Shown in pieces: positions 8,546 through 50,800 of a stretch of DNA of 64,000 nt. Numbering within the stretch: the first letter of the stretch is position 1; each line of letters starts with the position of its first letter. The stretch is from Candidatus Omnitrophota bacterium. GTDB lineage: Bacteria > Omnitrophota > Gorgyraeia > Ghiorseimicrobiales > Ghiorseimicrobiaceae. Location: positions 31,207-95,206 of the forward strand of contig JAUXSB010000003.1 in NCBI GenBank assembly GCA_030681595.1, written 5' to 3'. Made by a program: the position numbers and the translations under genes. Under the pieces are notes generated by a model that was not told the DNA's origin, searched no databases, and saw nothing but the letters and a program-made list of their open reading frames with translations.

Positions 8546-8583
8546 GTCAAGCTGCAAGCTGCAAGCTCCAAGCTGCAAGCTTT
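8546..8583. repeat. heptamer microsatellite (caagctg/caagctc) x5
   Basis: caagctgcaagctgcaagctccaagctgcaagc read directly. Confidence 0.6.
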
Positions 8584-8595
8584 TAGCCTGAAGCC

Positions 8596-8650
8596 TGTGG
8601 CTTTGGCTATATTGAAAGCCAAACCACTGCCCTCTGGCTGGTGGCTTGTA
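8596..8650. repeat. single degenerate copy of the 44-bp repeat family (ggctttggctatattgaaagccaaacc core)
   Basis: tgtggctttggctatattgaaagccaaaccactgccctctggc is ~88% identical to the unit of the array at 35608-35795. Confidence 0.6.
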
Positions 8651-11631: not shown

Positions 11632-11828
11632 TACTGCCTCCTTTCAATGACGACACAACTTATGGAGTCACGGACGGCATAAGTTGTATGTCGGAATTGA
11701 TGCCGAAAGCTACGAGAAAATTTGTAGCAAATTTTCGAGTGTTTTGCTTTCGGCGCAATGCATAACTTACAAATTCCAAAACCTCCGGATGAACGAGTTA
11801 TTTACGCGTAGTAAAACCTACCTTTTCA
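11632..11828 (-). promoter_or_regulatory. conserved structured intergenic/leader cassette, copy 2
   Basis: Sense orientation: gccgaaagc[aaaacactcgaaaatttg-cta-caaattttctcg]gctttcggc, ATCAATTCCG, hairpin acaacttatg...cataagttgt, GTGTCGTCATTGAAAGGAGG, cagt, ATG. It fills the whole pyrG-stop to next-start gap. Confidence 0.6.
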
Positions 11829-15131: not shown

Positions 15132-15380
15132 TTAATGGTTTATATGCGGATGTTTTAGCTTATACCATTCGCAGAAAAAGCATTTCTCAATGCCGCGTTT
15201 ATCGCTGACTCTGCCGCAATATTGAGCCGCGACATGCCAACACTCTTTATCCGATTTATGGCTTTGGCGATATGGAAAGCCAAACCATTGCCTTGCCGGC
15301 TTATAGGCGGGGCAATTTTCTCTTGATTCTATTTTACATTCAAAATATTCCCAGCATGTTTTGGCATCTTTGTCAGGCAT
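15132..15380 (-). CDS. small Cys/Trp-rich protein (two-CW-like), paralog of 25662-25904, carrying an in-frame repeat-derived insertion
   Basis: 82 aa from ATG 15380, which overlaps the upstream hybrid-kinase stop as ATGCCTGA. KTCWEYFECKI...CPAYK aligns with KTACWEVRGCEI...CAAYK of the paralog. The extra 16 aa ARQWFGFPYRQSHKSD are encoded by a copy of the 44-bp repeat. Confidence 0.45.
   Translation of the reverse strand: MPDKDAKTCWEYFECKIESRENCPAYKPARQWFGFPYRQSHKSDKECWHVAAQYCGRVSDKRGIEKCFFCEWYKLKHPHINH
15254..15307. repeat. copy of the 44-bp repeat family embedded in-frame in a coding sequence
   Basis: ttatggctttggcgatatggaaagccaaaccattgccttgccggcttat is ~92% identical to the array unit. 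Confidence 0.6.
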
Positions 15381-24219: not shown

Positions 24220-25374
24220 TTAAGTTTCCCTATCTGCTATTTCTTCCCTGAATTTGACTACATGTTTTTTAAGATTATCCGCGAGATCATTCAGCTTGGT
24301 GGAACTAGCAACTGACTGCTTGGCCGCCACGGCAAACTGCTTGGTAACCGTATCGATGTTTTTCATTGCCTCGGCGACTTGCGAGGAGGCGGTCTTCTGC
24401 TGCTGGGTAGCCAGCGAGATTTCTTTGGAAATCTTAGCACTGTCTTCTACCATCTTTAAACCTTCGGAAACACCGCGTGTTGAATCTTCTATGCCCATTA
24501 CTACGCTGTTAGTTTCCGCCTGTATTTCATTAATCAGCTGCCTAATCTCCTCGGTGGACTCGACTGAACGCTCGGCTAATTTCCTTACCTCGGAAGCGAC
24601 TACGGCAAAGCCGCGCCCTGCCTCTCCTGCGCGCGCCGCCTCAATAGCGGCATTTAAAGCCAGGAGGTTGGTCTGGCTTGAGAGGTCGTCAATCATGGAA
24701 GTAATCTTGCCGATGGTCTGCGATTTTTCGCCAAGTGCCAATATTTTCTTGGCGGCATCGGAAACTTTGACGCTTATCTCTTTCATTTCAAGCAGGGTGC
24801 GCTCTGCGGCACGGGTGACGTTATACGCGTTTTCAGCGATAGATGAAGCGGTACGGGAGAGCTCTTCCATTGTGCTGGTAGTTTCAGTGACGGCGGAAGA
24901 CTGTTCAGAGGCACCCGAGGCCTGTTCTTCGGTCGAGGCCATTATTTGGGCAGCGCAGGAAGTTACTTCCAGGCTTGCCTGCTGGATCTGATACATTAAA
25001 TTTCTTATACTTGCTATCCTCTTTACTGCCGCTCCTTCTTCCATCCGTTTATCAATAAGCATCTCATGAAGGATATCTATGGTGCGGTTAAAACTTTCGG
25101 CGAATTTACCAAATTCATCCTTGGTTTTTATATCCAACACTAAATCATAGTTGCCATAATTAAGCCCTTTGGATACATCCACAATCAACTCTAAAGGCGC
25201 AAGAAGCCTAAAAATGCCATATATGATAAGAATTACGCTAACCGCTATTAAGATAAACTTTGAACCGAGGTTTAAAGAAGGGGTTAATTGCAGGGTGTCT
25301 ATCCAGAATAAGCCGATAAAAAGCAAAATAATAGCTGCGCCGGTGATTAATAATAATTTATACTTTACACGCAT
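24220..25374 (-). CDS. methyl-accepting chemotaxis protein (MCP-2), paralog of MCP-1
   Basis: 384 aa. Its signalling domain is near-identical to MCP-1 (about 97% DNA identity over 150 compared bases, 24320-24480 vs 20534-20700). The N-terminal sensor/TM part differs. Confidence 0.85.
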
Positions 25375-25547: not shown

Positions 25548-25665
25548 TTTACCCCGTTAGAGAAACCGTCTTATTTTAGTCAGCGGTCATTACTAAATCC
25601 AACGATGGTCAAAACTCAGCGTCAGCGCAAACCATTAGAGAATTTCGTTCTCTAACGGGGTTTAC
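25548..25665. repeat. MITE-like element A with 14-bp terminal inverted repeats (accccgttagagaa / ttctctaacggggt)
   Basis: Read directly; ~118 bp; interior differs from copy B. Confidence 0.5.
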
Positions 25666-25904
25666 TGACTAACCTTAATTTCATCCCCTTTACCGTGATC
25701 CTTATAGACCTTACAAATCTTACAAACGCTGACATCTATGCCGGATTCGCCTTTACAGATAGTACCTTTTATTATCCAGCAAGGATATTCCTGTTTTTTG
25801 TATGCCGCGCAACTTGGCGCCCCACCGGGCTTAATCTCACAACCTCTTACTTCCCAACAAGCTGTTTTTCCGGACCAGAATCCTGTTCCTTTTGGTAAAG
25901 CCAT
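25662..25904 (-). CDS. small Cys/Trp-rich protein (two-CW-like)
   Basis: 80 aa with motifs ACWEVRGCE and YPCWIIKGTIC and 8 Cys. The ATG is preceded by GGGGAGG plus 5 nt. Confidence 0.45.
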   Translation of the reverse strand: MALPKGTGFWSGKTACWEVRGCEIKPGGAPSCAAYKKQEYPCWIIKGTICKGESGIDVSVCKICKVYKDHGKGDEIKVSQ

Positions 25905-26040
25905 CTTTTCCTCCCCTCAATGACGGCATAACTTATGGAGCCAGAGACGACATAAGTTATCAGCCGGAATTGATCCCGATAGTTACAAGAAAATTTAGTA
26001 TAAATTTTCGCAGTGTTTTACTATCGGGACAATGATCCCC
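25905..26040 (-). promoter_or_regulatory. conserved structured intergenic/leader cassette, copy 3
   Basis: Sense orientation: tcccgatagt[aaaacactgcgaaaattta-tac-taaattttc]ttgtaactatcggga, TCAATTCCG, hairpin cataacttatg...cataagttatg, CCGTCATTGAGGGGAGG, aaaag, ATG. Confidence 0.6.
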
Positions 26041-27971: not shown

Positions 27972-28098
27972 TTTTACCCCGTTAGAGATACCCTATCTAC
28001 TGCTTAAGACCAACTACTTATTTATAGAAGCTCTATTCTGTTTTTGCCTATCCCGTAATAGACGGCCATCTATGATGGCCTATCTCTAACGGGGTTTA
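27972..28098. repeat. MITE-like element B with 15-bp terminal inverted repeats (accccgttagagata / tatctctaacggggt)
   Basis: Read directly; ~127 bp. It overlaps the last codons of the aldolase gene and contains the internal palindrome ggccatc-tat-gatggcc. Confidence 0.5.
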
Positions 28099-28877: not shown

Positions 28878-29013
28878 GGATTTCCTCCTCAATGACGACA
28901 TAATTTACGGAAACGAAGTTGACGTAAATTATATGTCGGAATTGATCCCGCCGAATGTACCAAAATTATAGAATATAATTTTGGTACATTTTATGAGGCG
29001 GGATAAACATTAA
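28878..29013 (-). promoter_or_regulatory. conserved structured intergenic/leader cassette, copy 4
   Basis: Sense orientation: cccgcc...[gtaccaaaattata-ttc-tataattttggtac]...ggcggg, ATCAATTCCG, hairpin gacatataatttacg...cgtaaattatgtc, GTCATTGAGGAGG, aaatcc, ATG. Confidence 0.6.
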
Positions 29014-34314: not shown

Positions 34315-35364
34315 TTAGGCAGGATTCACAAAGAAAAGCGAAGGGAATACATTCATCAGGATTATAAATATGGCAACTACTATTATCCAACCCGCCAACG
34401 CAGATAATATACTTAAAGCCGCTTCTTTCTTCAAAACTCTCCTGATATCGCAGGTAAGGCCGATGGCCGCCAGGGCCGCGCCGAAAATAATCTTATACCA
34501 TGGCTTAATCAGGGGCGAATATTGCTCTAGGGGCGTATAAGTAAAAAGCAGGGCCGCGCCAAAGAACAAATAAGCGATAGTTAAGCTGTATTTAATTACC
34601 GAAAGGCGTATCTCTGCGGTAGCTTTTTTTGACTTTAACTGATTCAAGAAAAGCACGATAAAACTAAACGGAAGGATGAGCGTGGTGCGGATATATTTAA
34701 CATTCAAGGCGAGCTTATCCAGGCCCTTTTCCATAAAAGTTCCTGCCGTCTGGACTAAGCCATCCTGATTAAAGGTCAACCCGCAGAATATGGCAAACTT
34801 TTCGCCATAAACATCGGCCGCGAAAAACAATTTATTCAGGAAAAATACACTGGCAAAAAATGACACCACGCCTACGAGAAGTATGCTGATAAGCGCTTTA
34901 GTCACATCTTCTTCCTCGGCATCAACCATGGGAGAACTTACCGCGATGGCGGCCACCCCGCATATAGCCGAGCCCACAGATGTAAGAAGGTTAGTCTTGT
35001 ACGTTACCTTGAGTAACTTATTAAGAAAATAAACTATTAAAAAAGTAAGCGCTGAATAAATTACGCATTGGAAGAGGATATCGCTGCCGATAACGCAGCA
35101 TAAAGCGATCTTTTTAAAATTAATCTCGGTGCCGTACAAAAACAAACCTACGGGCAAAAGAATATCTTTGCATAATGCCGTACCTATCCAAAGCGAATTT
35201 TTACGCGGAAAACAAGAACCGATAATAACGCCGATAATTACCGCGACAGCGAACGCGTTAATAAACTTATACAAACCGGATAACCAATAACTAAAAATAG
35301 ATATGCCCAAGGCAAGCAAAAAACCGGGTAACGCTAAAGCAAACAATCCCTTTTCTTTACCCAT
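34315..35364 (-). CDS. polytopic membrane protein (possibly YeiH/UPF0324-type exporter)
   Basis: 349 aa, highly hydrophobic; family assignment is tentative. Confidence 0.3.
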   Translation of the reverse strand: MGKEKGLFALALPGFLLALGISIFSYWLSGLYKFINAFAVAVIIGVIIGSCFPRKNSLWIGTALCKDILLPVGLFLYGTEINFKKIALCCVIGSDILFQCVIYSALTFLIVYFLNKLLKVTYKTNLLTSVGSAICGVAAIAVSSPMVDAEEEDVTKALISILLVGVVSFFASVFFLNKLFFAADVYGEKFAIFCGLTFNQDGLVQTAGTFMEKGLDKLALNVKYIRTTLILPFSFIVLFLNQLKSKKATAEIRLSVIKYSLTIAYLFFGAALLFTYTPLEQYSPLIKPWYKIIFGAALAAIGLTCDIRRVLKKEAALSILSALAGWIIVVAIFIILMNVFPSLFFVNPA

Positions 35365-35593
35365 GGCTCTTTTCCCCTTCTTGGCTTAAACCAGATATAG
35401 TCAAACTATCGGTTTTAAGTATTTTTTTTGCTTCTTCGACAAGCTTTGTTTCCAGCTGCACGTCATCAGGCGTATCTTCGGAAAAACTCTCCACATCCTG
35501 GCCAAGCTTGAAACTCAACATCGCCACAGCCAGATTCTTAAAAACAGACCTCGCCTTTACTACATCAACTATCGCCTTAAGTTTTCCCGCCAT
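35357..35593 (-). CDS. small acidic hypothetical protein
   Basis: 78 aa ORF overlapping the downstream gene by 8 nt; no recognisable motif. Confidence 0.3.
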   Translation of the reverse strand: MAGKLKAIVDVVKARSVFKNLAVAMLSFKLGQDVESFSEDTPDDVQLETKLVEEAKKILKTDSLTISGLSQEGEKSHG

Positions 35594-35607: not shown

Positions 35608-35795
35608 CTTATGGCTTTGGCTAAATTGAAAGCCAAACCATTGCCTTGTGGCTTATGGCTTTGGCTATATTGAAAGCCAAACCATTGCCTTGTGGCTTAT
35701 GCCTTTGGCTATATTGAAAGCCAAACCATTGCCTTGTGGCTTATGCCTTTGGCTATATTGAAAGCCAAACCATTGCCTTACCGGCTTATGCCTTA
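35608..35795. repeat. tandem array, ~4.4 copies of a 44-bp unit (cttatggctttggctatattgaaagccaaaccattgccttgtgg)
   Basis: Read directly with period 44 bp. Copies differ at 1-3 positions. The unit contains the hairpin tttggc-N10-gccaaa. It lies at the left boundary of the low-GC radical SAM island. Confidence 0.85.
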
Positions 35796-36032
35796 TTCAA
35801 ATTTACTATTTTAATTATATCAACTTTCTTCAAATATTGCAACCCAATAAATTACCGCGAGCCTTATTATAGTTATAGCACATAAATTAACTACTGGCGC
35901 AGAAAATAACGCCTTATACATAAGCGCATTAAGGTTACAAGACATTCTGCTATGCAGGCAACACTTCAACTTATCTTTCCGCATTAATGCTCATTTAAAT
36001 ATAATGCTGCTTATGAAAATATTAATGCAGTA

Positions 36033-36956
36033 TCACAAAAACCAGGTTATAAGCGCTCCGGAAAACATCCAAAAGGCAAAGGGCGTAGTTTTCTGAATAG
36101 TTCTTTCGGAATAAAAATCAATTATTTTCTTAAGCATAGGGAACAGCAGCATAATCAATACGGTCGATATGAATGTATTTTTTATTTCAAAAATAAATCT
36201 TTTATCCGTATACACAAAGTATAGTATCAAAAAAACAAAAGTAATCATTATAAATTTGGTATTTTTTTTAAACATTTTGGAAAGCTTTTTAAAAAGCAAT
36301 AGGGCGATCAACATCAAAATATTCTGATCGGGTAAAATCCTACCGATTAAATTTTGTAATGCTTGTCGTAAAACCTTAAAAGCTAGAAAAAGAGTAAGAA
36401 AGCCAAAAAAGACTTTGCTTAATTCAATTTTATTAAATTTACTCTTCTCTTTAATTAATTCTGCGGTTTGCTTCTTTAATTTCCCAAAATTAAATTTTTT
36501 AATAAAGTAGGCGCATGACCGCAAAAAAAGATAAGCTGTCGCCGGTATAAAAATACTTAACAACAATGAAAAGGAAGCAAAGTAATAATTAAAATAAACC
36601 CGAGAATACTGCCCCATTGGAATAAGGGCAGAATAGCAGATAAAAAGCTTCGCATCCCCTGCTCCCCACATCTTAAAATACCATAGCGAATATGCCACAA
36701 TTATACTCGTTATTAAATTAACGCACCATTTGTCAAAATTATGGACTAAACCAGAAGATATTTCTGCTAAAACATTATTCGTAATTCCGCTTAAGGACAG
36801 ATAATAAATAATCCAGGAGGATAAATATAAAACACATGCGTAGATTAATCCTATTAAAATCCACTTATTTCTGATTTTAGAATACCTTAAGTCTTCGTAA
36901 GACGTAACAAGCCCGATAAAGAAAATTATCGGCAAAAAAATAATATTATTAATCAT
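36033..36956 (-). CDS. A24-family aspartic peptidase-like polytopic membrane protein (prepilin/preflagellin peptidase-like)
   Basis: 307 aa with SYEDLRYSKIRN (first catalytic Asp context) and WGAGDAKL (the GxGD-type second Asp motif of PilD/FlaK). Confidence 0.45.
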   Translation of the reverse strand: MINNIIFLPIIFFIGLVTSYEDLRYSKIRNKWILIGLIYACVLYLSSWIIYYLSLSGITNNVLAEISSGLVHNFDKWCVNLITSIIVAYSLWYFKMWGAGDAKLFICYSALIPMGQYSRVYFNYYFASFSLLLSIFIPATAYLFLRSCAYFIKKFNFGKLKKQTAELIKEKSKFNKIELSKVFFGFLTLFLAFKVLRQALQNLIGRILPDQNILMLIALLLFKKLSKMFKKNTKFIMITFVFLILYFVYTDKRFIFEIKNTFISTVLIMLLFPMLKKIIDFYSERTIQKTTPFAFWMFSGALITWFL

Positions 36957-37214
36957 ATAACTAATAAGCTTTGTTAAAATTTATTTTATTTATTCTTGTT
37001 TCTAAATTATTACTATTACAACACATTGGCAACAAACAAGTTATGTATTTTTTAAAGCATCGTTAATAAATAAGGTTATATCTTTGCAACGCATAACCAT
37101 AACGTAACGCATTGCATTACAATAAGTTGTGAAAGAAGATTTCGCAAGATGCCCCTATTTTTAATAAAGCCCTGTAATAAATATTCCTCACGTAATTTTT
37201 TCTGTATTAAAGAT

Positions 37215-37700
37215 TCAAATATTATTGGATAATATCTTTTCCGAAATTTCTAACACCAAGCTTTTCAACTTAGAAAAATTGTTAGCATTTAATTTTAGAT
37301 ATTTATAGTAATATATAACGTAATCATGGTTAAAAAGTATGCCGTTACTCAGTTTATATTCGCCAAGATGCCGTAAAGCGAAAGCTAAATCTATCCAGTT
37401 ATCAAGATTGTCGGGGTTACGAGAAATGGATTTTAAAAAATATTTCTTCGCCTGAGAAAAGTCTTCGGCGATATAATAAATATATCCTGCAAGCGAAAAG
37501 ATTGTTTCTATCTGTTCTTCTTTTAACCAATTTTTAATTTTCCCTTGCAACATTCTTAATTTCTCGGGAGAAGAAAAATAAAGAATGGATAACCGGTAGA
37601 AAAGCGAATCTATCCGTTCAATATAGCCAGAAATATAATTTGTCTGACGAGGCGAGAGATCAAAACCAGCAATATTTTTAAATTCGTTACATATATCCAT
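37215..37700 (-). CDS. TPR-repeat protein
   Basis: 161 aa with TPR-like helical repeats (AKKYFLKSISRNPDNLDNWIDLAFAL). Confidence 0.45.
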   Translation of the reverse strand: MDICNEFKNIAGFDLSPRQTNYISGYIERIDSLFYRLSILYFSSPEKLRMLQGKIKNWLKEEQIETIFSLAGYIYYIAEDFSQAKKYFLKSISRNPDNLDNWIDLAFALRHLGEYKLSNGILFNHDYVIYYYKYLKLNANNFSKLKSLVLEISEKILSNNI

Positions 37701-38770
37701 TAATTAAACTGAACAATAAAAGGTATCTCCGGGGCAAAATTTCTCCTCTGCCATCTGATCCTTCTTATCAACTTGCCATTATTCAAAATCACAACATCTC
37801 TATCCTCTAAAAATACACAGTTTCCTCTTTTTAAGTCACTTTCATAAAGGTTATTTTCAGACATTTGACCAATGAAGTAGACATCTTTATAATGTAACTT
37901 ACCATTTTTAATCTCGCCATCAAAGGCATAAAATTTTATTTCATAAAAGATTAATAGGGGTAGTTTTAAATGCCTATCAATCTTTTCTACAAATTCCGGC
38001 TCTTCCGCATAAATCGCTTTTTTTATTTTTCTGGCCAATTCTATCGTAGCCTTACAATTATAAGCACAAGGCATATGATAGATATAGGAATAGGTAATAT
38101 CCCTAGTACAAGGATTAGATAAATAATGGTATCTATTTTTCTTGGTATTCTTAAATGCTTCATAAAGATAACTATACTTATACCAGTTATTAAACTGTCG
38201 AAAAAAACCGACACAACATTTTGGATATCCAAGGTTATATCCAAATTTAAAAATATCTATACCAGGCCTATCAATTACTCTATGTTTGATTATTAAAGGA
38301 TACCATCCATCTCTAAAACAATTTTCTAAGTTACCTTTTGATTTAGCAATAAATACATGAACAAGGCCATCTTTGCTTGACCCATTAAACGGTAAGCCAA
38401 ATGCATAAGTCGTAGTTAGGCGTTTACCACCTATAACATTTTTTAAAATATTTTTCTTTTTTGACATCCTAAAAACAGTATCGGTCCTTACAATAAGACC
38501 ATAGCGTTTGCATATTCTACGGTATTCATCATATCTATCCACCCTTACCCAGTCGTCCATCGCTGGCTTTATCTCTTTCACTGTAGCCATTATATTCACT
38601 AACTGCCCACTGCCCTTAATCTGGACAAATTCTCTACAGAATTTTTTTGGATAATAGGATTCAAACATTATAGATATAATGAAACTCCATGGCTTTACAG
38701 ACGCAGCACCCAAGAACCGCCTGCGCTTCGTTTTAGCTATGCCTGAAAGCAGGCATAGCTGCGACATCAC
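37700..38770 (-). CDS. hypothetical protein (no rSAM motif), cluster member
   Basis: 356 aa, tightly coupled (start/stop overlaps) with neighbours; GYPKCCVGFF motif of unknown meaning. Confidence 0.3.
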   Translation of the reverse strand: MMSQLCLLSGIAKTKRRRFLGAASVKPWSFIISIMFESYYPKKFCREFVQIKGSGQLVNIMATVKEIKPAMDDWVRVDRYDEYRRICKRYGLIVRTDTVFRMSKKKNILKNVIGGKRLTTTYAFGLPFNGSSKDGLVHVFIAKSKGNLENCFRDGWYPLIIKHRVIDRPGIDIFKFGYNLGYPKCCVGFFRQFNNWYKYSYLYEAFKNTKKNRYHYLSNPCTRDITYSYIYHMPCAYNCKATIELARKIKKAIYAEEPEFVEKIDRHLKLPLLIFYEIKFYAFDGEIKNGKLHYKDVYFIGQMSENNLYESDLKRGNCVFLEDRDVVILNNGKLIRRIRWQRRNFAPEIPFIVQFN

Positions 38771-39766: not shown

Positions 39767-40650
39767 TTAACAGGTTTAAACTCTTGCCACCCAAAAAACT
39801 CAGGATATTCACGCCAGGGTCCCTCGCAAATTTTGAAATATTTGCATTCTTCACACTTCGGCCCTTTAAGTTTTCCATGTTCTCTGCGCCACTGGTTAAA
39901 ATTGGTTATCGGTTTAATATCAAATACCTTGGTTTCAGGAATAATCGCTTCACTAGCACAATTGGCATATTCGCTTAAAAAACAATACGGTATGGCTTCA
40001 GTTTTTGGCATTTTTTTCTTCCTAATGCCAATTTCCAGGCCGCGTTTTAAATAAAGAATAATATCTTTTTTCTGCGGTATTAGCCAACTATGATTCGCTA
40101 ATGCGTTTCCTAAAATATGAGGAAAGGAAAAACGATATTCAACCACCCCTAAGCCAACTAACATCAAAGCAATCTTAGGTAAAAAGCGGTAATTCAATGC
40201 AGTAATAACTGTATTAGTAAATACTACGCGACCAGAAGAAAGGAGATGCTTAATACCACAAATCGTCTGAGCGAAACTTCCCCTCGCTCCCGTATGGCTA
40301 TCATGCAACTCAGCATTATGTCCATGTACCGATATAGTAAAAAGACTTGCACCTGCCTCTATCATTTTTTTACAAAAATCTTTATACCTAAACATTCTTC
40401 CGTTGCTTTGAATATGAACAATATATCCTAACTTTTTAGAATATCTTACCAAGTCTATGATATCAAAACGTATTGTAGGTTCTCCACCTGTAAAAATTAC
40501 CTCTTTATAACTATCTTTCGAATCAGCTAAAATAGTTTCTATCTGTGAGCGCGCCATATCGTTGTAGATTTTGCGCTTGTTACCTTGGACACAAAAACTA
40601 CAGTGGTTATTACATCTAAAACTAATTTTTATATCCAGCCTCTTATGCAT
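39763..40650 (-). CDS. radical SAM protein, island paralog family
   Basis: 295 aa with CNNHCSFC, FTGGEPT, SVHGHNAELHDSHTG, and C-terminal IPYCF...CEECKYFKICEG...FGWQEFKPV. It is a close paralog of 55967-56872. Confidence 0.75.
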   Translation of the reverse strand: MHKRLDIKISFRCNNHCSFCVQGNKRKIYNDMARSQIETILADSKDSYKEVIFTGGEPTIRFDIIDLVRYSKKLGYIVHIQSNGRMFRYKDFCKKMIEAGASLFTISVHGHNAELHDSHTGARGSFAQTICGIKHLLSSGRVVFTNTVITALNYRFLPKIALMLVGLGVVEYRFSFPHILGNALANHSWLIPQKKDIILYLKRGLEIGIRKKKMPKTEAIPYCFLSEYANCASEAIIPETKVFDIKPITNFNQWRREHGKLKGPKCEECKYFKICEGPWREYPEFFGWQEFKPVK

Positions 40651-40681
40651 ACATCTATCCTAACCTTAATTATCCGTTGTC

Positions 40682-41614
40682 TTACGGCTCGCTTTTAACA
40701 TGTTTTATTGTCTCTTCTTTGGAAACAAAAACAGCGTATAGTTCTTGCGAAGAAAAATATTTATCCATCGCATAAAGGCCGGGACATATTTCATTCAAAA
40801 AACAAACACTACAACACTCAACCTTGCCATATGACCATCCTCTTTGGACTTTAAGGCCCTTTTCATCTAAGAAATAAATCGCGCGCTTCTCTCTCTTTAT
40901 TATTTTTCTGGCTTCCGTAGAACAATGTGCAAAATCAGCCATGTAACATAAGGGTACGCGTTCCGCCCTAAAAGTTCTCTTTTGCTCGGCTAAAAAATGC
41001 ATTGCCCTATTGAGCTCTAATTCAAAATCTATCAGTCGGGGAATCGTATCGGGATTTTCTGATGCGCGGTTCATCGAAGGGTCAATATTATTCCAGATAA
41101 AATGGCGAATAAACGGATATCTATTCACAAGCCACGCCGTAATTCTGCTTAAATGATCGGCATTATATTTATTAATCACGGTAATAACATCAACCTGCAA
41201 ATTTAACTTTTTGGCATTGTTAAGCGTTTTTTTAATGTTACATAAAGAATCCTTGTTCTCAGTAAGAAAACCCTGAATATCAGCACTATCAGAGTAGATG
41301 GATAAATTGATATGGTTTAATCCTGCCTCTGCCAATGAGTTAATATATTTAAAGTCGGCTGTTTTTTGGCCATTCGTTATTATTCTGACTGGAAAATTTT
41401 TGTTTGTTGCATACGCGATCAATTCAATGAGATCTGGATATAGGGTCGGCTCTCCTCCGCTTAAAATAACCCCATCGCAACCTATCTTGACATAATAATC
41501 AATTAACTCCTTAGCTTTCTTAAGAGATATGGTTTTATCAAACGACGGATTAGAACAAAATCTGCATTTTTGATTACAAATACGCGTAACCTGTATATAA
41601 GCTAATTCGGCCAT
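40682..41614 (-). CDS. radical SAM protein, island paralog family
   Basis: 310 aa with CNQKCRFC, LSGGEPT, and C-terminal VPLCY...CCSVCFLNEICPG. Confidence 0.7.
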   Translation of the reverse strand: MAELAYIQVTRICNQKCRFCSNPSFDKTISLKKAKELIDYYVKIGCDGVILSGGEPTLYPDLIELIAYATNKNFPVRIITNGQKTADFKYINSLAEAGLNHINLSIYSDSADIQGFLTENKDSLCNIKKTLNNAKKLNLQVDVITVINKYNADHLSRITAWLVNRYPFIRHFIWNNIDPSMNRASENPDTIPRLIDFELELNRAMHFLAEQKRTFRAERVPLCYMADFAHCSTEARKIIKREKRAIYFLDEKGLKVQRGWSYGKVECCSVCFLNEICPGLYAMDKYFSSQELYAVFVSKEETIKHVKSEP

Positions 41615-41618
41615 GTTT

Positions 41619-42644
41619 TCAGTAATTGCATTTATGTTTATGCTTGTTTTTTATTTCTGAATCAAATATGCTAATCCGCTCTAAAGTATGCAATATTTCT
41701 TTCGGATTTTTATCTGAAAGCGTTAGATTAAAATTAGGATAAACTTTTAGATAATCTCTTCTTACCCCCGGGCATATTTCACACAAAGAACAGCCTCTGC
41801 ATTCTCTGTATTTATAAAAATCTTCTTTGGCGATATCATTTTGAGTCCTGAGATTATTTATCCCGCGCGAATCAAGATATAAGTTATTATGATATAAATT
41901 TTCTTTTAATTCAACACTGGACCATTCATAAGAAGAGAGGATACATAACGGAAAACCGCAAGCAGAAATTTTATCCGTAGGGTTATCCCCTCCTAACGCC
42001 TTTAACGCTTTTAAAAGATAAGGCTGAATCTTATTTAGCGGAGGAAGTATCTTTTTGTAAAAAGTACTGTCATTGCCGCCTAAATCCATAAATTTAAATT
42101 TTACCCTGAATGGCGTATGCCTTAATATTTTTTTAAGATGAGTCGCCATGCCCTCTAATTCTTTATAATTCAAGCTATTAATTACCGTGTTGAAATTAAT
42201 CGCTAGCCTTTCTCTTATCTTTTTATTATCCTTATTAAATGATTCGATATTTAGTAAAGCCTTTTCCTGTAAAGAATGGCAAAACTTATTTCTTGATATG
42301 GCATTTGCAACCTTTGGGATATGCGAGTGAAAAGAAAAATTTATCTGCACGACTCCGCCTTTAATAACCTTAACTAAAAAATCATAGTAACTAAGCATTG
42401 AACCGTTAGTTGTAACCTTAAGTTTTAAATTACATTTTTTGGCTTCTTCCAATATTTTTAAAAAATCTGGCCTAATGAATGATTCCCCGGTCATTAACAT
42501 AACTGTATCTTCCTTGTAACTCTTAACTTTTTGAAACAATTGCCTAATTTCTCCAAAAGAAAGATCTTTTTTATGCTTATGCTGCCTATCCAGACAAAAT
42601 AAACAGTTGAAATTACATTTTTGGGTAATGCCTGTAATAATCAT
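41619..42644 (-). CDS. radical SAM protein, island paralog family (divergent)
   Basis: 341 aa with CNFNCLFC and C-terminal FPLCIL...CRGCSLCEICPG. Confidence 0.65.
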   Translation of the reverse strand: MIITGITQKCNFNCLFCLDRQHKHKKDLSFGEIRQLFQKVKSYKEDTVMLMTGESFIRPDFLKILEEAKKCNLKLKVTTNGSMLSYYDFLVKVIKGGVVQINFSFHSHIPKVANAISRNKFCHSLQEKALLNIESFNKDNKKIRERLAINFNTVINSLNYKELEGMATHLKKILRHTPFRVKFKFMDLGGNDSTFYKKILPPLNKIQPYLLKALKALGGDNPTDKISACGFPLCILSSYEWSSVELKENLYHNNLYLDSRGINNLRTQNDIAKEDFYKYRECRGCSLCEICPGVRRDYLKVYPNFNLTLSDKNPKEILHTLERISIFDSEIKNKHKHKCNY

Positions 42645-44734
42645 TAATTTTCTATCGGCTTTAAATCAGAAAACGAATAAATTAATGCGTATTCTCGCCA
42701 TACGCCATTACAAAAATTATATAAATTACATTTAACACAATTTGGCCCCTTAATTTTGCCTAAATTTAAATTATTTTCCCGCGAATTAAATCTTAAAGTA
42801 TTTTCGGTATATTCCACACATTGGCTAAGGTACTTATGCCATCCTCCTATACATAACGGGACACCGCAATATGGATTAAATATCATTAAATCACATTTTT
42901 TAGCCAGCTCGACTGCCTTTTTGATATAGGGAGAGATTATTCCATATGACGGTATAAGATACTTATTTATTAATGCCCGCTCCCGCGGCTGGATAACCGA
43001 AAGCGAGATATTTTTAATTTGGGGAAATTTATTATGAACAAATTTTATGTATTCGGGTAACTCTTTGTAATTTTGGGTAGTTATAACCGGATTTAAGGTA
43101 ACATCAATATTTAATTCTAATGAATTCCTAATCCCTGCGATAGCCATATCGAAGGCACCCTCCAACCCTACCAGCTTATCATGAATTCCAGGTACTGAAG
43201 AATGCAGGCTAATAAATAGCTTATTCAGCCCGGCATATTTCAATTTTTTTAAATAATCGTTATCGGATAGCCTTATCGCGTTAGTTTGAACCTGAACTAT
43301 TTTTACTCCTTTTCTATGGGCATATTTTATCAACTCCGAAAGGTCTTTTCTCAGGGTAGGCTCACCGCCGGTAATATCCAACTCCAACCTTAATTCCTTA
43401 TCAAGTGCGGTCAAGCGGCCTATTTCAAGTTTAGCCTGTTTAGTCGAAAGCTCTTTTAGAGCATACGATTCCGGAGGAACATTACAAAATAAACATCCGG
43501 CATTACACGCTGAGCCTAATCGTAAAAGCTTATATGGGGAGTTTTTCTTGACATCACCAATACTAATTTTCTTTAACCCGGCTTTAATCGGTGATAAAAC
43601 CTCAAATCCGTGCTTACGGATATAATTACACTGCATTCCAGCACAGCCTGCCATATGTTTGCACTCCTTGCATCTTTTACTTTTCAAAAAATATCTGTGT
43701 TGAATATAAAAATCAAGAAACTTTAAAATATCTTTATTTTTTTGGTCATTTTGCACATATACTGCCGGCCTGCCCGAATATCCCGGTTCATTTATTTCCC
43801 CTAAACAAAAAGGGGAGGCATGCGAAAGTATTTTATTTTTTTTCTTTAATTCTATTAAATCCTTACAAAAATTTTCTAAAAAACAAAACCGGCACCTCAA
43901 GCCTTTACAATCCATCACTTTGCCTTTAAAAAGAAAATTATTAAACATATCCTTGCGGCCGCCTACTTCATCGTATAATTTAGCCGGGTGCTGGATTAAA
44001 TATTCAAATCCTTCAAGATACTGCGGGGGGAAACGATTTGTCCATATATGTAGCCGCGGATCTTTGGATAGCATAAAAGCTTTGCGCAAAAATTTAATTG
44101 ATTTTTGAATATCATAAAAGAGAATATCCCTCTTAGCCCATGCTTGCCCAAATGGGATAACTTGCAAAAGATCAAACTCATATACGCCCAAATTAATAAA
44201 GAATTCTAAAATACTTGCTAAATACATTACATTAATTTTGTTTATCACAATATCAACACTAACAATCAAATCTTTTTCTTTTAAAGCATTAACTAAGGCT
44301 ACTAACGACTGCTGAAATGATCCCGGTACTTTAGTTTGTTGATCATGAAGCCTGCTATTATGCCCATGCAGCGAAAAGGTTATTTCTGATACACCGCTTT
44401 CTATTGCCTGCTTTAAGAAGCTCTGGTAGGCAAACATCCGGCCATTGGTAATAACTTGAATATGGCTGTATCCTAATGTCCTCGCCATATTAACAATATT
44501 AAAAAAATCCGGATGGATTGTTGGTTCTCCCCCGCTTAAAACAACTCGTCTTATCCCTAAACCTCTGCCTTTTTGTAAATCGGCTTTGATCTTCTCTAAA
44601 GGGATTACGCTCCCATCATGGGCTTCTTTATCTAAACAAAAGAGGCAGCGGTTATTACAACCCCGGGTTAGCCGTACCCAGTGTCTTTTTACCTGTGGTA
44701 TAATTTCTCGTTGCATAGAATAGCCTTTTATCAT
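42644..44734 (-). CDS. tandem-fused double radical SAM protein (two complete paralog-family modules)
   Basis: 696 aa. Module 1 has CNNRCLFC...SLHGHNSRLHDQQT...CKECKHMAGCAG. Module 2 has CNAGCLFC...SLHSSVPGIHDKL...VPLCIGG...CVKCNLYNFCNG. Confidence 0.75.
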   Translation of the reverse strand: MIKGYSMQREIIPQVKRHWVRLTRGCNNRCLFCLDKEAHDGSVIPLEKIKADLQKGRGLGIRRVVLSGGEPTIHPDFFNIVNMARTLGYSHIQVITNGRMFAYQSFLKQAIESGVSEITFSLHGHNSRLHDQQTKVPGSFQQSLVALVNALKEKDLIVSVDIVINKINVMYLASILEFFINLGVYEFDLLQVIPFGQAWAKRDILFYDIQKSIKFLRKAFMLSKDPRLHIWTNRFPPQYLEGFEYLIQHPAKLYDEVGGRKDMFNNFLFKGKVMDCKGLRCRFCFLENFCKDLIELKKKNKILSHASPFCLGEINEPGYSGRPAVYVQNDQKNKDILKFLDFYIQHRYFLKSKRCKECKHMAGCAGMQCNYIRKHGFEVLSPIKAGLKKISIGDVKKNSPYKLLRLGSACNAGCLFCNVPPESYALKELSTKQAKLEIGRLTALDKELRLELDITGGEPTLRKDLSELIKYAHRKGVKIVQVQTNAIRLSDNDYLKKLKYAGLNKLFISLHSSVPGIHDKLVGLEGAFDMAIAGIRNSLELNIDVTLNPVITTQNYKELPEYIKFVHNKFPQIKNISLSVIQPRERALINKYLIPSYGIISPYIKKAVELAKKCDLMIFNPYCGVPLCIGGWHKYLSQCVEYTENTLRFNSRENNLNLGKIKGPNCVKCNLYNFCNGVWREYALIYSFSDLKPIEN

Positions 44735-45693
44735 TTAATTGCCCTGAATTCGCCCCAGCCAACCTTTTCGGCATAAAGATTATCTATACCGCTGCATTTA
44801 TAATAATATTTGCATGGTTTACAGCTTTTATTTTTTATATTCCTTGATTCACGAGGTAATATTTCTACTCTTTTATTTTTAACCTGAAGTGGGATTTCGG
44901 ATTCCCCGACGTAATTTTCATAACCTACCATCAAACAAAGCGGCACAGGAGATATCTGTATAACGCCGGATAATCTAAACAGCTTATCTACTTTTAACCT
45001 ATCAATTACATTCCTAACTTCTTTAGCTACATCCAAATAAGTAACAAATAACTGACTGAAGAATCTTTCTGCGTTGCCGGAATACATTGGCATATTTAAC
45101 ACAATGCTATCTACTTTATTAAACGGTAAGATTTTTCTTAAGAAATTTTCAATATCTCTGTAGTTAATTTTTGTCATGGTAAAATTAACATTAAGCCGAA
45201 ATCTATATTTTTCCTTTAAAGAGACCATGTTGCATAACCCTTGCCATGTTTGTTCAAATGCACCGCTGCTACGAGTTAAGGCATCATGGATTTTTTTATT
45301 ACTCCCGTGAAGAGAAATATTAATCTCATTTAGCCCGCTATCTAATAATTCAATGCAAAAGTTTTTATATCTTAATAAACGCCCGTTTGTCTGTAGGCAA
45401 ATATCTTTATATCCCCACTTCTTAGATAATCTTATGAAATAAAGTAAGCCCTTATTCAGCGTTGACTCTCCCCCCGTAAATGATATGGAATCGACTTCTT
45501 TTGTTTTTCTTCCATCTCTTTTAAACATATCCAGATTTAAAAATGGTTCTCCGTTGACACTGCAATAATATTTTGACAACATATTCTGGCCATTAATACA
45601 ATCGCGATCACAGCAAAAAATACAATTATTGTTACAACACCCGCTGGTTTTAATATGAATTCTACTATCAGGGCTTATAATTACGTTATCCAT
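44731..45693 (-). CDS. radical SAM protein, island paralog family
   Basis: 320 aa with CNNNCIFC, FTGGEST, SLHGSNKKIHDALT, and C-terminal CKPCKYYYKCSG...VGWGEFRAIK. Confidence 0.7.
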   Translation of the reverse strand: MDNVIISPDSRIHIKTSGCCNNNCIFCCDRDCINGQNMLSKYYCSVNGEPFLNLDMFKRDGRKTKEVDSISFTGGESTLNKGLLYFIRLSKKWGYKDICLQTNGRLLRYKNFCIELLDSGLNEINISLHGSNKKIHDALTRSSGAFEQTWQGLCNMVSLKEKYRFRLNVNFTMTKINYRDIENFLRKILPFNKVDSIVLNMPMYSGNAERFFSQLFVTYLDVAKEVRNVIDRLKVDKLFRLSGVIQISPVPLCLMVGYENYVGESEIPLQVKNKRVEILPRESRNIKNKSCKPCKYYYKCSGIDNLYAEKVGWGEFRAIK

Positions 45694-45696
45694 TCT

Positions 45697-47055
45697 CTAA
45701 CGGTAAAAAAATAATGCGTAGATATATTTTTCTTCCGGCTTATCAAAATAAAAACAAATGTAATCATCAAAAATCTTTATTTTTCCAAGCCGCTTTAAAG
45801 CGTAAATAGCATAAGGAAAGGCAACAAAAATACTTGTACCAAACACAGCCTCAAATATTTTTTGAGGAACCTTGGATTCTAAGGCTAAATGATTTATTAT
45901 AAATTTTATCATCGCCTCTTTTTTCCTTAATATTCTACCCTCATATATTTTACTATCAAACTCAAAATGCCTCGGTTGCTTAACTTGACGATACTCCAGC
46001 ATACCATGTATATACGACCTGGAAAATGTTCCCAGGCCAAAGGTACACCCTGCGTATTCACCGGAATAATCTTGGGAAAAACTAGAGTCAAGATGTTCCT
46101 TATGGCGAAAGCCCCAATGGAACCTGGCAGGGTCAAAAGAGTCCGCTACATAGCCGAATTTCCGGCTTAATACACGCATAATTTTTAATGCCCGTGAAAT
46201 CATGGATGGATAATGCTTTTGAAAATAATCTGCGCGGCTCATCTTGAAATATTTACGCAGATATCCGTCATTAGGCGGCATTAAACCATAGACAACGATA
46301 TTATAAGGCCTTAATTTAGCAATTTCAGAAAAACTTTTTGTAAAGCCATTTGGGCTATCCCCTGCGAGACCGGCTATTAAATCGACACTAATATCCCTAA
46401 AACCATTTTCTTTTACCAGCCCAATTGCTTTTTTAATGCTCGCGTAATCCTGATAGTCCCTTTTATGAATTTTTAAAACCTTAGCATTTAAAGTTTGCAC
46501 GCCAAAACTAACTCTATTAAATCCAAAATGCTTAAGTAAGCTCAATCTTGAATTTCTTGTACTGCCTGGATTACATTCGGCTGTTTTTTGGCTATCGCCA
46601 CAAAATGAAAAATACCGGAAAAGATTTGTGAGAACCTTATCAAGTTGTTTGCTGTTTAAAATACTTGGTGTACCGCCTCCGACATAAAGATTACGGAATT
46701 TAATTTGGCTGAATGTATCGGAAAAAAAACACATATTCTCAATCAAATAATCCACATACCGGTCTATCTCTCTCCTGTCTCTTGCTGTCTGCGAAGGATA
46801 CGAACAATAAACACATTTTGACTGACAAAATGGGATATGGATGTAGAAATCGATATCGCACGGGTTGTTTTTATTTTTAGCATACTGGATAAATTTAGCC
46901 CAATAATCTTTAATTAGGCGGGGGCTAATCTGCCGGTTATAATCGGAATATGTATGCAGTTGATTAATATCATAAAAATAATCCCTCCGCCTAAGAATAT
47001 TTTCAAAATACGACACCTCATTCCTTAATATTTTTAAAATGTTGTTATCGCTCAT
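45697..47055 (-). CDS. HemN/HemW-like radical SAM protein (class-C-like)
   Basis: 452 aa with YIHIPFCQSKCVYCSYPS signature. Confidence 0.7.
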   Translation of the reverse strand: MSDNNILKILRNEVSYFENILRRRDYFYDINQLHTYSDYNRQISPRLIKDYWAKFIQYAKNKNNPCDIDFYIHIPFCQSKCVYCSYPSQTARDRREIDRYVDYLIENMCFFSDTFSQIKFRNLYVGGGTPSILNSKQLDKVLTNLFRYFSFCGDSQKTAECNPGSTRNSRLSLLKHFGFNRVSFGVQTLNAKVLKIHKRDYQDYASIKKAIGLVKENGFRDISVDLIAGLAGDSPNGFTKSFSEIAKLRPYNIVVYGLMPPNDGYLRKYFKMSRADYFQKHYPSMISRALKIMRVLSRKFGYVADSFDPARFHWGFRHKEHLDSSFSQDYSGEYAGCTFGLGTFSRSYIHGMLEYRQVKQPRHFEFDSKIYEGRILRKKEAMIKFIINHLALESKVPQKIFEAVFGTSIFVAFPYAIYALKRLGKIKIFDDYICFYFDKPEEKYIYALFFYR

Positions 47056-47063
47056 ATGAATAA

Positions 47064-47990
47064 CTAAATAGGGCTTAATTCTTTATCGCCAAATTCTTTA
47101 TAATAACGCTTAAATATTCCCCCGCAGATATTCTTCTTTGCGCAACGCTGGCATACAACTGTATAGATCCTCCCCCTAACCGGCCTGTACGAATGCGTAA
47201 CCTTAAGAAATCTTTGGCTACTTCTATGCATCTTTTCGATTGTCGTCCGGGGAGACCACCAAAGATCATTAGAACAGCCCTGATAATTATTCAATATACA
47301 AAGCGGTATCCCAAAAAATCTAACAACCAAAGAATTCCTATCGGCTTCGGATATAATTGTTCTAATGTTTTCTTTAATTAACTTAAGGGGCACGGATAGC
47401 TCGCAAAAATTATCCAAAGCATTGCCTTCAGGAGCAATATTAGAAATGAGTATCTGCTTTATTTTTTTGAAATTAGAGATAAATTTGATTATGCGATCTA
47501 GCGATCCAAAATTATACCGCGTCAATACGATATTAACAATGCCGAATATGTCTTTCGGATGCCTATCTATATTTTTTAACGCACGAAGCAAATTATCAAA
47601 ACTATGTTCGTTATTTGTATGAAAATTATGGAGTTTAGCGCTGTGGCCATGCAAAGAGAAGCAGAACTCATCAACATAATTTAAGGCCTCCCGAGTGAAA
47701 TCTTTTAAATAAAATAATCCTCCGTTACTCGTAGTATAAGTTTTATAGCCTTTAGTTTTTGCTAATTTAACTATTTCCACAAAATCGGGATGAAAAGTCG
47801 GTTCTCCTCCGGTAAAAGTAACATGATTAATTCTTCCCTTGTGATATTTTTCCAAAACGTTATTTACAACCGATTTCGGCAAAAAATACCCTTTAAACTT
47901 TATTAGCTGCTTATGCTCACTGCAAAAAATACAGTTATTTACGCAATCATAGGATATATGCAATTCTAATCGTTGTATATTATTTTCCAT
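47064..47990 (-). CDS. radical SAM protein, island paralog family
   Basis: 308 aa with CVNNCIFC, FTGGEPT, SLHGHSAKLHNFHT, and C-terminal IPLCIL...CQRCAKKNICGG...FGDKELSPI. Confidence 0.75.
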   Translation of the reverse strand: MENNIQRLELHISYDCVNNCIFCSEHKQLIKFKGYFLPKSVVNNVLEKYHKGRINHVTFTGGEPTFHPDFVEIVKLAKTKGYKTYTTSNGGLFYLKDFTREALNYVDEFCFSLHGHSAKLHNFHTNNEHSFDNLLRALKNIDRHPKDIFGIVNIVLTRYNFGSLDRIIKFISNFKKIKQILISNIAPEGNALDNFCELSVPLKLIKENIRTIISEADRNSLVVRFFGIPLCILNNYQGCSNDLWWSPRTTIEKMHRSSQRFLKVTHSYRPVRGRIYTVVCQRCAKKNICGGIFKRYYKEFGDKELSPI

Positions 47991-47994
47991 ATCA

Positions 47995-48912
47995 TTATTT
48001 AATCGGCTTTATTTCGCGATCACCATAATATTTTAGGTATATATCCCAAACACCTTTACACTTATCAGCAATCTTACAAAATAAACATTTTCTAATTTTT
48101 ATTCGATTAATTATTTTTTTTGACTCGATATTTTCGTACTGTTCAATTTTATTTTTAGATATCAACCGAGGCGTACTTTCAAACGAATATTCATTTTCCT
48201 CGATAGTACCGGATATCTGCTTAAGATAGTCCCCAAAATAGCATAAGCAGGGAACATTTAAAGCCGCATAGCTAACCTCATCATCTAACCGCCCAATATC
48301 TAAAAATTTGCGAATATAATACGCGGCTGTAGAAATACGCGGCGTATATTTATAAAAATCACGCGGGGAACTAACATAAATGAGGCATGCCGTTTTTATC
48401 CCAACACGATAGATTAACTTACCTATATCATATAAATATTTATAATTCTGCTTAACAATTACCGTGTTTGTACCTATATTATCAAACCCGAATTTCCTAA
48501 GGTTGGCAATCCCTTCCTTAAGATGTTTAAAGCTCCCCTCTACCTGCGATAGATAATCGTGTAATTTTGCATTATGCCCGTTGATCGTAAAGATTATACG
48601 AGAAATTCCTGCCTCAATAGCCCTACGAGTAAAATCTTCATAAGAGAAAAACCTGCCATTTGTAGTCAAAGTGATATTTTGAAAACCTATATTTTTGGCA
48701 AATTTTAGCAAATAAAAAAAGTCCGGCCTAATCGTAACCTCCCCCCCGGCAAAAAAAGCATCAACAGCCCCAGCTTTTTTCGCTTCTTTAATCTCCCGCA
48801 TTATTTCCTGTGTCGTTTTAACAGGAATACCCCTATATGCCCTATCGCCGCAAAAACGGCAATAATTATTACAGGAATAACCGGTAAGAAATTTTGCTGT
48901 TTTATCTTGCAT
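47995..48912 (-). CDS. radical SAM protein, island paralog family
   Basis: 305 aa with CNNYCRFC, FAGGEVT, TINGHNAKLHDYLS, and C-terminal CLFCKIADKCKG...YGDREIKPIK. Confidence 0.75.
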   Translation of the reverse strand: MQDKTAKFLTGYSCNNYCRFCGDRAYRGIPVKTTQEIMREIKEAKKAGAVDAFFAGGEVTIRPDFFYLLKFAKNIGFQNITLTTNGRFFSYEDFTRRAIEAGISRIIFTINGHNAKLHDYLSQVEGSFKHLKEGIANLRKFGFDNIGTNTVIVKQNYKYLYDIGKLIYRVGIKTACLIYVSSPRDFYKYTPRISTAAYYIRKFLDIGRLDDEVSYAALNVPCLCYFGDYLKQISGTIEENEYSFESTPRLISKNKIEQYENIESKKIINRIKIRKCLFCKIADKCKGVWDIYLKYYGDREIKPIK

Positions 48913-48922
48913 TGATAATAGT

Positions 48923-50455: not shown

Positions 50456-50800
50456 TTAAAAGCGTGAAAATGTGTTTTCTTTCGAATAAATACGCAAATT
50501 ACTGTGAATCATTTTTTTAAATTTACGGTTATCCCCCTAGGTGTTTAAAAGTATATCCCGTATAGACGAAGAGGTTTTTCCGATATCATCCAAACTTTTT
50601 ATATCATTCACTGTGCCAAAATAAAATTCTCTTTTTAGCTTTTTAAATTTAGTCTCAAGCAATGGCCCCCCACAAAATATATCCCCCCGTCGCAATCAAC
50701 AGCCGGTTCAGAAGATATGATCCGCTCACCTTCCCGAATTTTGAAATTCGCTATAAAATTAATAATCTATTGATACTGGGTAAAACTTGCGTATCCATAA

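Follow-up and report, generated by a model that had tools for sequence, protein, structure and literature searches.

Very small hairpin-forming repeats widespread in Omnitrophota, probably non-autonomous mobile elements, often lie in frame within genes

Repetitive extragenic palindromes (REPs), imperfect palindromes of about 20–40 nt in many copies, are extragenic, carry a GTAG-type motif and form inverted doublets (REP doublets forming hairpins, REPINs; bacterial interspersed mosaic elements, BIMEs) that flank their REP-associated tyrosine transposase (RAYT). [quoted passage not shown] The Rickettsia palindromic elements (RPEs; Ogata et al., 2000, via PMC10969869) are palindromic non-autonomous repeats of about 100–150 bp in several subfamilies; according to that article, an unusually large share lies in frame in unrelated housekeeping genes and is translated as an extra peptide, and no transposase is linked to them. 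Here we describe a hairpin-forming repeat of 42–45 nt, present as a tandem array and two single copies in a 64-kb window, the whole stretch of DNA analyzed, from a metagenome-assembled genome (MAG) of Candidatus Omnitrophota (307-kb contig, 39% guanine plus cytosine, GC). The repeat is probably a member of a family of very small non-autonomous mobile DNA elements, with 45-nt and 42-nt subfamilies, that is widespread in Omnitrophota.

On our best reading, this family would behave like the RPEs while being much smaller. Like the RPEs as that article presents them, the element is palindromic and non-autonomous, falls into several subfamilies, is often in frame in unrelated housekeeping genes and has no linked transposase. 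It differs in its length of 42–45 nt (about three times smaller), its single hairpin, its direct tandem arrays, its use of five frames and its phylum. As an in-frame palindromic repeat it belongs to the same functional class, and size alone sets it apart from the RPE families proper; there is no reason to assume common descent.

All copies in the window lie on the plus strand, and nearly all window genes lie on the minus strand. The three sites are:

35608..35794, plus strand: tandem array of the hairpin element (Tandem Repeats Finder: period 44, 4.2 copies, 96% matches, score 330), made up of 44-nt units at 35608, 35652 and 35696, a 45-nt unit at 35740-35784 and a 10-nt partial unit.
15255..15304, plus strand: single A-type unit inside a two-CW gene, read antisense as KPARQWFGFPYRQSH (nhmmer E=9e-19).
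8595..8639, plus strand: single 44-nt A/B hybrid unit (nhmmer E=9e-14).

Each of the four array units is recovered by nhmmer at E 1e-15 or better. With up to three mismatches, the 27-bp core matches six times in the window (at 8599, at 15260 and four times in the array) against an expectation of 0.00 from 100 shuffles, and BLAST and two nhmmer profiles found no further copies in the 64 kb besides the three sites. The first-pass annotation had thus rightly proposed a dispersed repeat family, an array plus two single copies. Its array, placed at 35608-35795 with 4.4 copies, stands with the slightly smaller extent and copy number given above, and the identities it gave for the single copies (88% and 92%) are about right: identity to the unit is 97% over 34 nt (8598-8631) and 95% over 40 nt (15256-15295), or, over 49 nt, 69% for the 8595 copy and 80–92% for the 15255 copy. 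The 44-bp unit it described is the local period of the window and not the canonical length, which is 45 nt, as in the fourth array unit; the 44-nt form seen in the window is an A unit lacking 1 nt of the tail. Neighboring units of the array have variants in common, which suggests that the array also grew by local amplification. The figure of 4.2 copies comes from one MAG assembly, and an independent Logan assembly of the same organism stops inside the array, so the exact copy number rests on a single assembly. A CRISPR-like array was rejected for want of spacers, and a terminator for want of a T-run.

The element is common across the phylum and not private to the window genome. The core pattern CTTTGGC-N6-GAAAGCCAAACCA, scanned over one genome per GTDB species, gave 19 loci, 16 of them with the full sequence of roughly 50 nt; eight Omnitrophota species genomes account for these, together with a 3.5-kb contig that had been binned under Gottesmanbacteria. 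The remaining three matches lack flanking element sequence and were set aside as chance. The Gottesmanbacteria-binned copy (L019, JAZDMI010000026.1, 3.5 kb) is a full element, and its contig is probably a mis-binned Omnitrophota contig, not a cross-phylum occurrence. A metagenome scan added 93 further contigs from groundwater and sediment projects, and viral contigs gave no match to the element. The core therefore recurs elsewhere, in eight other Omnitrophota species genomes and 93 metagenome contigs; the first-pass annotation had suggested a genome-wide search for it. Across all fetched DNA (699 kb), nhmmer returned 175 hits, 150 of them unique, at about 121 unique sites: 96 singles, 19 doubles, 3 triples, two four-unit arrays and one five-unit array. 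Copy number differs at orthologous arrays of relatives (one unit in L009 versus two in L012, one in L035 versus three in L058), which is the kind of array variation the same annotation had suggested comparing. An Rfam scan of the window at gathering scores reported only a tRNA-Ser, and an E-value scan of the array gave a best E of 0.27–0.58, at chance level. Full-text literature searches on Omnitrophota/Omnitrophica found no description of the element, and this 42–45-bp hairpin repeat family of Omnitrophota is apparently undescribed so far. Three subfamilies are recognized:

Subfamily A, 45 nt: consensus CTTATGGCTTTGGCTATATGGAAAGCCAAACCATTGCCTTACCGG.
Subfamily B, 42 nt: consensus CTTGTGGCTTTGGCTATCGGAAGCCAAACCACTGCCCTCTGG.
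Subfamily C, 42 nt: consensus CCTATGGCTTTGGCTAGAGGAGGCCAAACCATGGCCTTCTGG.

A and B are separated by two indels, a 2-nt one in the loop and a 1-nt one in the tail; these sum to 3, so that unit length stays a multiple of three. In the hybrid copy at 8595 an A-type loop is joined to the stem end and tail of type B (GTGG..CCAC, TGCCCTCTGG). This copy lies in the spacer that separates the start of an RluA-like gene (8543) from the end of a pyrophosphatase gene (8680), and folds with -14.3 kcal/mol (z=-4.0). A 7-bp tandem repeat (CAAGCTG x 4.9, 8548-8581) separates it from the ATG of the RluA-like gene (8543).

The unit reads TGG-C-TTTGGCT / loop / AGCCAAA-CCA, followed by TTGCCTTACCGG and CTTA. In the window this gives an 11-bp hairpin with one bulged C (ATGG-C-TTTGGCT / AGCCAAA-CCAT), longer than the tttggc-N10-gccaaa hairpin noted originally. 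DNA folding yields -10.2 kcal/mol (z=-3.7), and either single strand folds with about -10 to -11 kcal/mol. Covariation in an alignment of 98 distinct copies substantiates the structure: the first helix is 97.6% paired, with 6 of its 11 pairs altered on both sides, and the observed pairing values were matched by none of 500 shuffles and by no slid register. Compensatory changes turn ATGG/CCAT into GTGG/CCAC, and TTTGGCT/AGCCAAA into TTTGCCT/AGGCAAA, TTTGTCT/AGACAAA or TTTGACT/AGTCAAA; CTGCGGCT/AGCCGCAC is another such pairing. The bulged C (C8) is invariant in all 98 sequences. A second helix of 3–4 bp, in the tail, is less strongly supported (75% paired).

Comparison of loci with and without the element shows that it is present or absent as one exact unit. 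Junction queries among the fetched loci yielded seven ortholog pairs in which the gaps are exactly 45 nt (A) or 42 nt (B, C). Both junctions of these filled and empty sites show TTA, TTT or TATG, compatible with duplication or with an element-borne CTTA end beside TTA. At 68 unique single-unit sites the left flank is [C/T]TTAT and random further out; on the right the unit always closes with CTTA, after which come T (76%) and a preference for S-G-G, so the target resembles the unit-to-unit junction, YTTA(T)SGG. The insertion data thus fit the placement of one lattice period beside TTA. Moreover, mixed A and B arrays are in exact register (L043, L046, L078, L086, L097), which makes re-insertion at junctions an easier explanation than slippage alone.

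The coding copy in the window is an instance of such an insertion. Its host is:

15132..15380, minus strand: gene for an 82-aa Cys/Trp-rich two-CW-type protein, with the insert between the two CW half-motifs.

A word-index search for close relatives of this protein returned only the protein itself; an exhaustive profile-free search found homologs of 62–71 aa, up to 65% identical. Aligned with eight of them, the window protein alone has 15 extra residues (KPARQWFGFPYRQSH) between the CW halves; the insert-spanning peptide, as read from the DNA, is PAYKPARQWFGFPYR. The Cys/Trp pattern C9 W10 C15 C23 C47 W48 C55 C67 C70 W72 is conserved in 10 sequences, with C9, W10, C15, C23, C47, C67 and C70 invariant, and all Cys/Trp motifs are intact despite the insert. 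The closest homolog (locus L113) is syntenic, sharing the gene order response regulator (RR)-PAS-histidine kinase, two-CW, PAS-GGDEF-HD, CTP synthase. DNA alignment with this ortholog shows a single 45-nt gap, which can be placed for example at 15259-15303 with TTA on both sides; the junctions are TTTA-TGG...CCGG-CTTA in the filled gene and CTTA at the empty site. The 15-residue gap in eight homologs and the 45-nt gap in L113 establish that the insertion is real, in frame and one unit long. The first-pass annotation had therefore been right about an in-frame insertion, which measures 15 codons instead of its 16, and the homologs, the syntenic ortholog and the conserved motifs bear out the coding status it had asked about. 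The paralog at 25662-25904, only 27% identical, is a poor comparator, and the insertion position is nonetheless the same. Both genes score under the cutoff of 35 for the NCBIfam two-CW domain NF045718 (24.4 bits for 15132-15380, 25.0 bits for 25662-25904), the score of the former being lowered by the insertion itself. An AlphaFold model of the 82-aa protein had a predicted local distance difference test (pLDDT) score of 54.7, too low for use, and its weakest segment (35-47), which overlaps the insert, is uninformative.

Residence within genes is typical of the family and not the rare survival that had first been supposed. A copy was counted as lying in a long open reading frame (ORF) if it was flanked on each side by at least 50 open codons of one frame. 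By this measure at least 44 of 121 unique sites (36%) are inside long ORFs, 17 in sense and 27 in antisense orientation, and none of these copies introduces a stop into the host frame. In consensus A 4–5 of the 6 frames are open, and in consensus B 5 of 6. Five readings are in use (MALAxxKAKPLPxRL, YGFGYxESQTIALxAY, LWLWLYGKPNHCLxGL, KPxRQWFGFPxSQSHK and QQGNGLAFxIAKAI), and readings of B and C also occur in ORFs, e.g., KPEGSGLASDSQSHK, sometimes in tandem. Unit lengths, measured with one regular expression, are distributed as follows:

Inside long ORFs: 45 nt, 31 units; 42 nt, 16; 44 nt, 0; 43 nt, 0.
Outside long ORFs: 45 nt, 46 units; 42 nt, 8; 44 nt, 6; 43 nt, 3.

Units of 43–44 nt are thus restricted to positions outside ORFs (Fisher p=0.0097). 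Hosts include conserved enzymes. In TsaD (TIGR03723, 382 bits), two units add 30 aa at L012 between positions corresponding to residues 126 and 127 of PDB 6nak_B, and the ortholog at L009 has one unit; the insert-spanning peptide, as read from the DNA, is FMALAKRKAKPLPCR. Family membership was also confirmed for the glutamate synthase large subunit GltB (1758 bits), for RibF and for an alpha-glucan phosphorylase in which the insert splits the conserved PTY|SGGLGVLAGD motif; another host is a spermidine-synthase-like membrane protein. Comparison of RibF with PDB gave no clean gap, the comparator having its own variable loop at the insertion site.

These observations suggest a mechanism. The unit would fold into the 11-bp hairpin with its invariant bulged C, followed by a 3-bp mini-hairpin, and a new copy would be exactly one unit placed beside a TTA motif at a junction-like YTTA(T)SGG site. 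The CTTA at the unit end would recreate the target; re-insertion at junctions, along with local slippage, could then give rise to head-to-tail arrays, including those of mixed subfamilies, and we infer such a self-targeting origin for the arrays. Mobility would be conferred in trans by an enzyme, for which the leading candidate is a HUH/Y1 RayT-like transposase acting on single-stranded DNA. Multiple-of-three lengths and 4–5 stop-free frames of 6 suggest that copies landing in tolerant protein loops are translated through and persist, adding 14–15 residues.

The element has features of other mobile DNA. As in the subterminal hairpins of IS200/IS605 elements (IS608), its hairpin is imperfect with an unpaired base, and it inserts beside a motif of 3–5 nt without clear duplication, so that IS200/IS605-type insertion would agree with the observed junctions; unlike those elements, which have two different end hairpins and tnpA or tnpB, it has a single hairpin, no cargo and a weak strand bias. 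With MITEs it shares small size, non-autonomy, TA-rich targets, possible short duplications and occasional in-frame ORF fusions. MITEs have terminal inverted repeats and usually exceed 100 bp, whereas the ends of the Omnitrophota element are direct repeats (CTTATGG...GGCTTAT): it is one lattice period of a tandem repeat, and its sole inverted repeat is the central hairpin.

Several points weigh against this picture of a mobile, translated element. In the absence of terminal inverted repeats, the classical cut-and-paste logic of MITEs does not apply. Microhomology at the junctions is equally compatible with a 2–4-nt target duplication, with site-specific insertion and with template switching. 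Element orientation relative to the local gene majority (53 against 33, p=0.04) shows a weak bias, short of the strong one expected for strictly lagging-strand single-strand transposition. Read-through of the in-ORF copies is predicted from DNA, which tempers the proposal at the protein level. No enzyme is tied to the element among the loci examined, and its single proximity to a RayT-like gene, described below, could be coincidence. Finally, at shared orthologous sites the element is 97.4% identical versus 90.6% for the 200-nt flanks (mostly coding; the pairs are partly redundant), and in L002/L003 52 of 53 element positions are identical versus 86.8% for the gene (binomial p=0.005). Copies that were purely selfish and in decay would not give such excess conservation, which requires gene conversion, recurrent insertion or a host function; possible causes are selection by a recognizing enzyme or for a host function, gene conversion and repeated hot-spot insertion.

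The array itself lies upstream of a small operon, the relevant features of which are:

35357..35593, minus strand: small ORF of 78 aa, conserved in four relatives with unchanged gene order; it is the first gene downstream of the array.
34315-35364: YeiH-family transporter gene (Pfam PF03601), its start overlapped by the small ORF.
35814..35842, minus strand: promoter-like box TTGCAA-17-TATAAT just upstream of the array (consensus scan, 10 of 12 matches with TG).

The number of promoter-like consensus sites in the scan is not above chance. In four relatives (L120-L123; YeiH 68–78% identical) a small ORF of 68–78 aa, yeiH, a ROK gene and a large downstream gene are all kept, and the element is absent from the small-ORF leader. 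A TTGCAA..TATAAT box nevertheless lies 25–45 nt upstream of the small-ORF ATG in L120, L121 and L123, with TTGACA instead in L122. Since the same box is kept in relatives without the element, the window array is an insertion that separates the box from the ribosome-binding site within the 5′ leader of a minus-strand operon beginning at 35593. GC content drops from about 42% to 27–32% at 35800-38400, and the first-pass annotation had taken the position of the array at this low-GC boundary as a hint of a recombination hotspot. That suggestion is not supported: gene content upstream of the small ORF differs in every one of the four repeat-free relatives, so the GC step at 35800 is a synteny break independent of the repeat.

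Among alternatives, a true REP/RAYT system of the REPtron type, in which RayT-like Y1 HUH transposases (Y1_Tnp plus a DnaA_C helix-turn-helix) cut and paste the hairpins as single-stranded DNA, would be a more specific version of the mobile-element explanation and not exclusive of it; we think it unlikely. The element resembles a REP in its short, imperfectly palindromic form, its invariant extrahelical base and the conserved short CTTA motif on both sides of the hairpin, in its many dispersed copies and clusters, and in the presence of RayT-like Y1 genes in the phylum. HUH Y1 enzymes recognize such combinations of hairpin and short motif (IS608, TnpA-REP). A transposase search by local phmmer with IS200, IS608 and E. 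coli RAYT sequences as queries, which serves as a lead only, pointed to one RayT-like ORF with Y1_Tnp and DnaA_C domains, 210 nt from an element copy (L059; the same locus in L037). Its protein scores 46 bits with PF01797 and 79 bits with NCBIfam REP_Tyr_transpos (cutoff 80), and this RayT-like family counts over 7600 relatives, among them many from Omnitrophota MAGs and many that lie on short contigs. Yet chance would account for a single co-occurrence in the roughly 700 kb of DNA that was fetched, and within 10 kb of four further RayT-like loci in Omnitrophota (L114, L117 and two in L116) there is no 45-nt element, a weak comparison as those genomes may lack the element; these loci have their own locus-specific direct repeats plus a GGGTCAGACC motif. 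A link to RayT-like transposases is therefore not supported. Furthermore, the motif is CTTA(T) and not a GTAG-type tetranucleotide, the arrays are direct tandems of period 42–45 nt and not inverted REPIN doublets, and 36% of sites are intragenic, unlike the extragenic REPs. The direct repeats flank the RayT-like genes on both sides (L059 190-300; L116 9800-10000, 10952-11020, 13380-13520 and 14465-14510; L117 9248-9300), and the conserved GGGTCAGACC stands just before a promoter-like TTGACA; these locus-specific repeats may be cognate sites of those enzymes.

Somewhat less likely still is a host-functional structured motif kept by selection, with its spread secondary, for example a site bound by a nucleoid or repair protein, an mRNA-stabilizing or translation-modulating hairpin, or a recognition tag. 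The near-identity of the sequence across at least eight species, its excess conservation over flanks, the invariance of the bulged C while the stem covaries and the position of the window array precisely in a 5′ leader, from promoter-like box to ribosome-binding site, would all suit a host role. However, copies occur in both orientations relative to transcription, in unrelated genes and spacers with no common context, individual copies are absent from close relatives without visible consequence, Rfam gives no match, and the conservation could also come from transposase constraint or from gene conversion among many copies. Translational bypass has very little to recommend it: the short (42–45 nt) hairpin inserts in conserved genes, including the essential tsaD, might be programmed "hop" elements or inserts removed from mRNA, as in T4 gene 60 and mitochondrial byp, and known bypass gaps are similar in size. 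Every in-ORF copy is, however, stop-free in the host frame and only 42 or 45 nt long, neither of which bypass requires, and no conserved pair of take-off and landing codons is seen at the junctions; plain read-through suffices. Scarcely any weight attaches to the idea that a piece of the two-CW gene has been dispersed, that the similarity is a repeat motif at the protein level or that it is an artefact of assembly. The unit was first noticed inside a coding gene and an independent short-read assembly breaks inside the array, but eight two-CW homologs lack the segment, the same DNA is used in five frames and both orientations in unrelated proteins and also in spacers, and independent assemblies from several projects carry it with compensatory stem changes; five-frame use, stem covariation and insert-free homologs together rule these readings out in practice. 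We thus retain the mobile element as the preferred explanation. A bolder form of it, that the element is codon-phased and adapted to genes, not merely tolerated in them, with length, open frames and sequence all maintained, is possible, and we put it forward tentatively.

Other repeats were seen in the same DNA. A second family of mini-elements, unrelated to the first and marked by terminal inverted repeats of 12 nt (CCCCGTTAGAGA...TCTCTAACGGGG), occurs in the window at 25552-25660 and 27977-28094 (109–118 nt, adjoining gene ends) and elsewhere at L003 4671-4738 and L047 518-585 and 1339-1406; in L003 a 72-nt version is in frame (+24 aa), and the ortholog in L002 is without it. Four minus-strand genes have a conserved module of 64–110 nt directly upstream of their start codons (5898-5983, 11642-11705, 25915-25978 and 28887-29005), with a hairpin GACGGCATAACTTATGG...CATAAGTTAT and a GAGG ribosome-binding site, and in two copies also TATACTATAAT and a palindrome TATCCCGTT...AACGGGAT; it may represent either a common promoter and leader or a third family of repeats. 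Two paralogs for methyl-accepting chemotaxis proteins (20464-21738 and 24220-25374, the latter adjoining the two-CW paralog) contain a duplicated stretch of 300 nt that is 88% identical (20515-20814 and 24289-24588). From about 40400 to 56800, eight copies of a 53-nt similarity, whose reverse complement encodes an SGGEP motif, mark a cluster of about eight paralogous radical-SAM-type genes; a Logan contig of this region carries numerous PF04055 genes and one that is HxsD-like. Genes from the window edges, used as queries, retrieved short Logan contigs that for the most part overlap the window.

Apart from the RPEs of Rickettsia there are few examples of selfish DNA that is routinely in frame in housekeeping genes, and the Omnitrophota family would be a second clear case, in an uncultivated, ultra-small-celled phylum. 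With a single hairpin of 42–45 nt, its boundaries, targets and constraints can be read from comparison of filled and empty orthologs, and the restriction on length, the invariance of the bulged base and the resemblance of the target to a junction are handles for finding the enzyme. The element inflates and diversifies proteins (TsaD by 15 or 30 residues) and lowers family-model scores, which matters for annotation, and it breaks short-read assemblies, as in the Logan contig that ends in the array. The family also opens the question of whether elements of this kind are a driving force in protein-loop evolution. If the codon-phased reading were true, one 45-nt unit would be integrated at a junction-like YTTA site, possibly via a single-stranded mini-circle, and the element would be a phylum-wide generator of loop insertions of 14–15 residues (28–45 in tandem) in essential enzymes such as TsaD.

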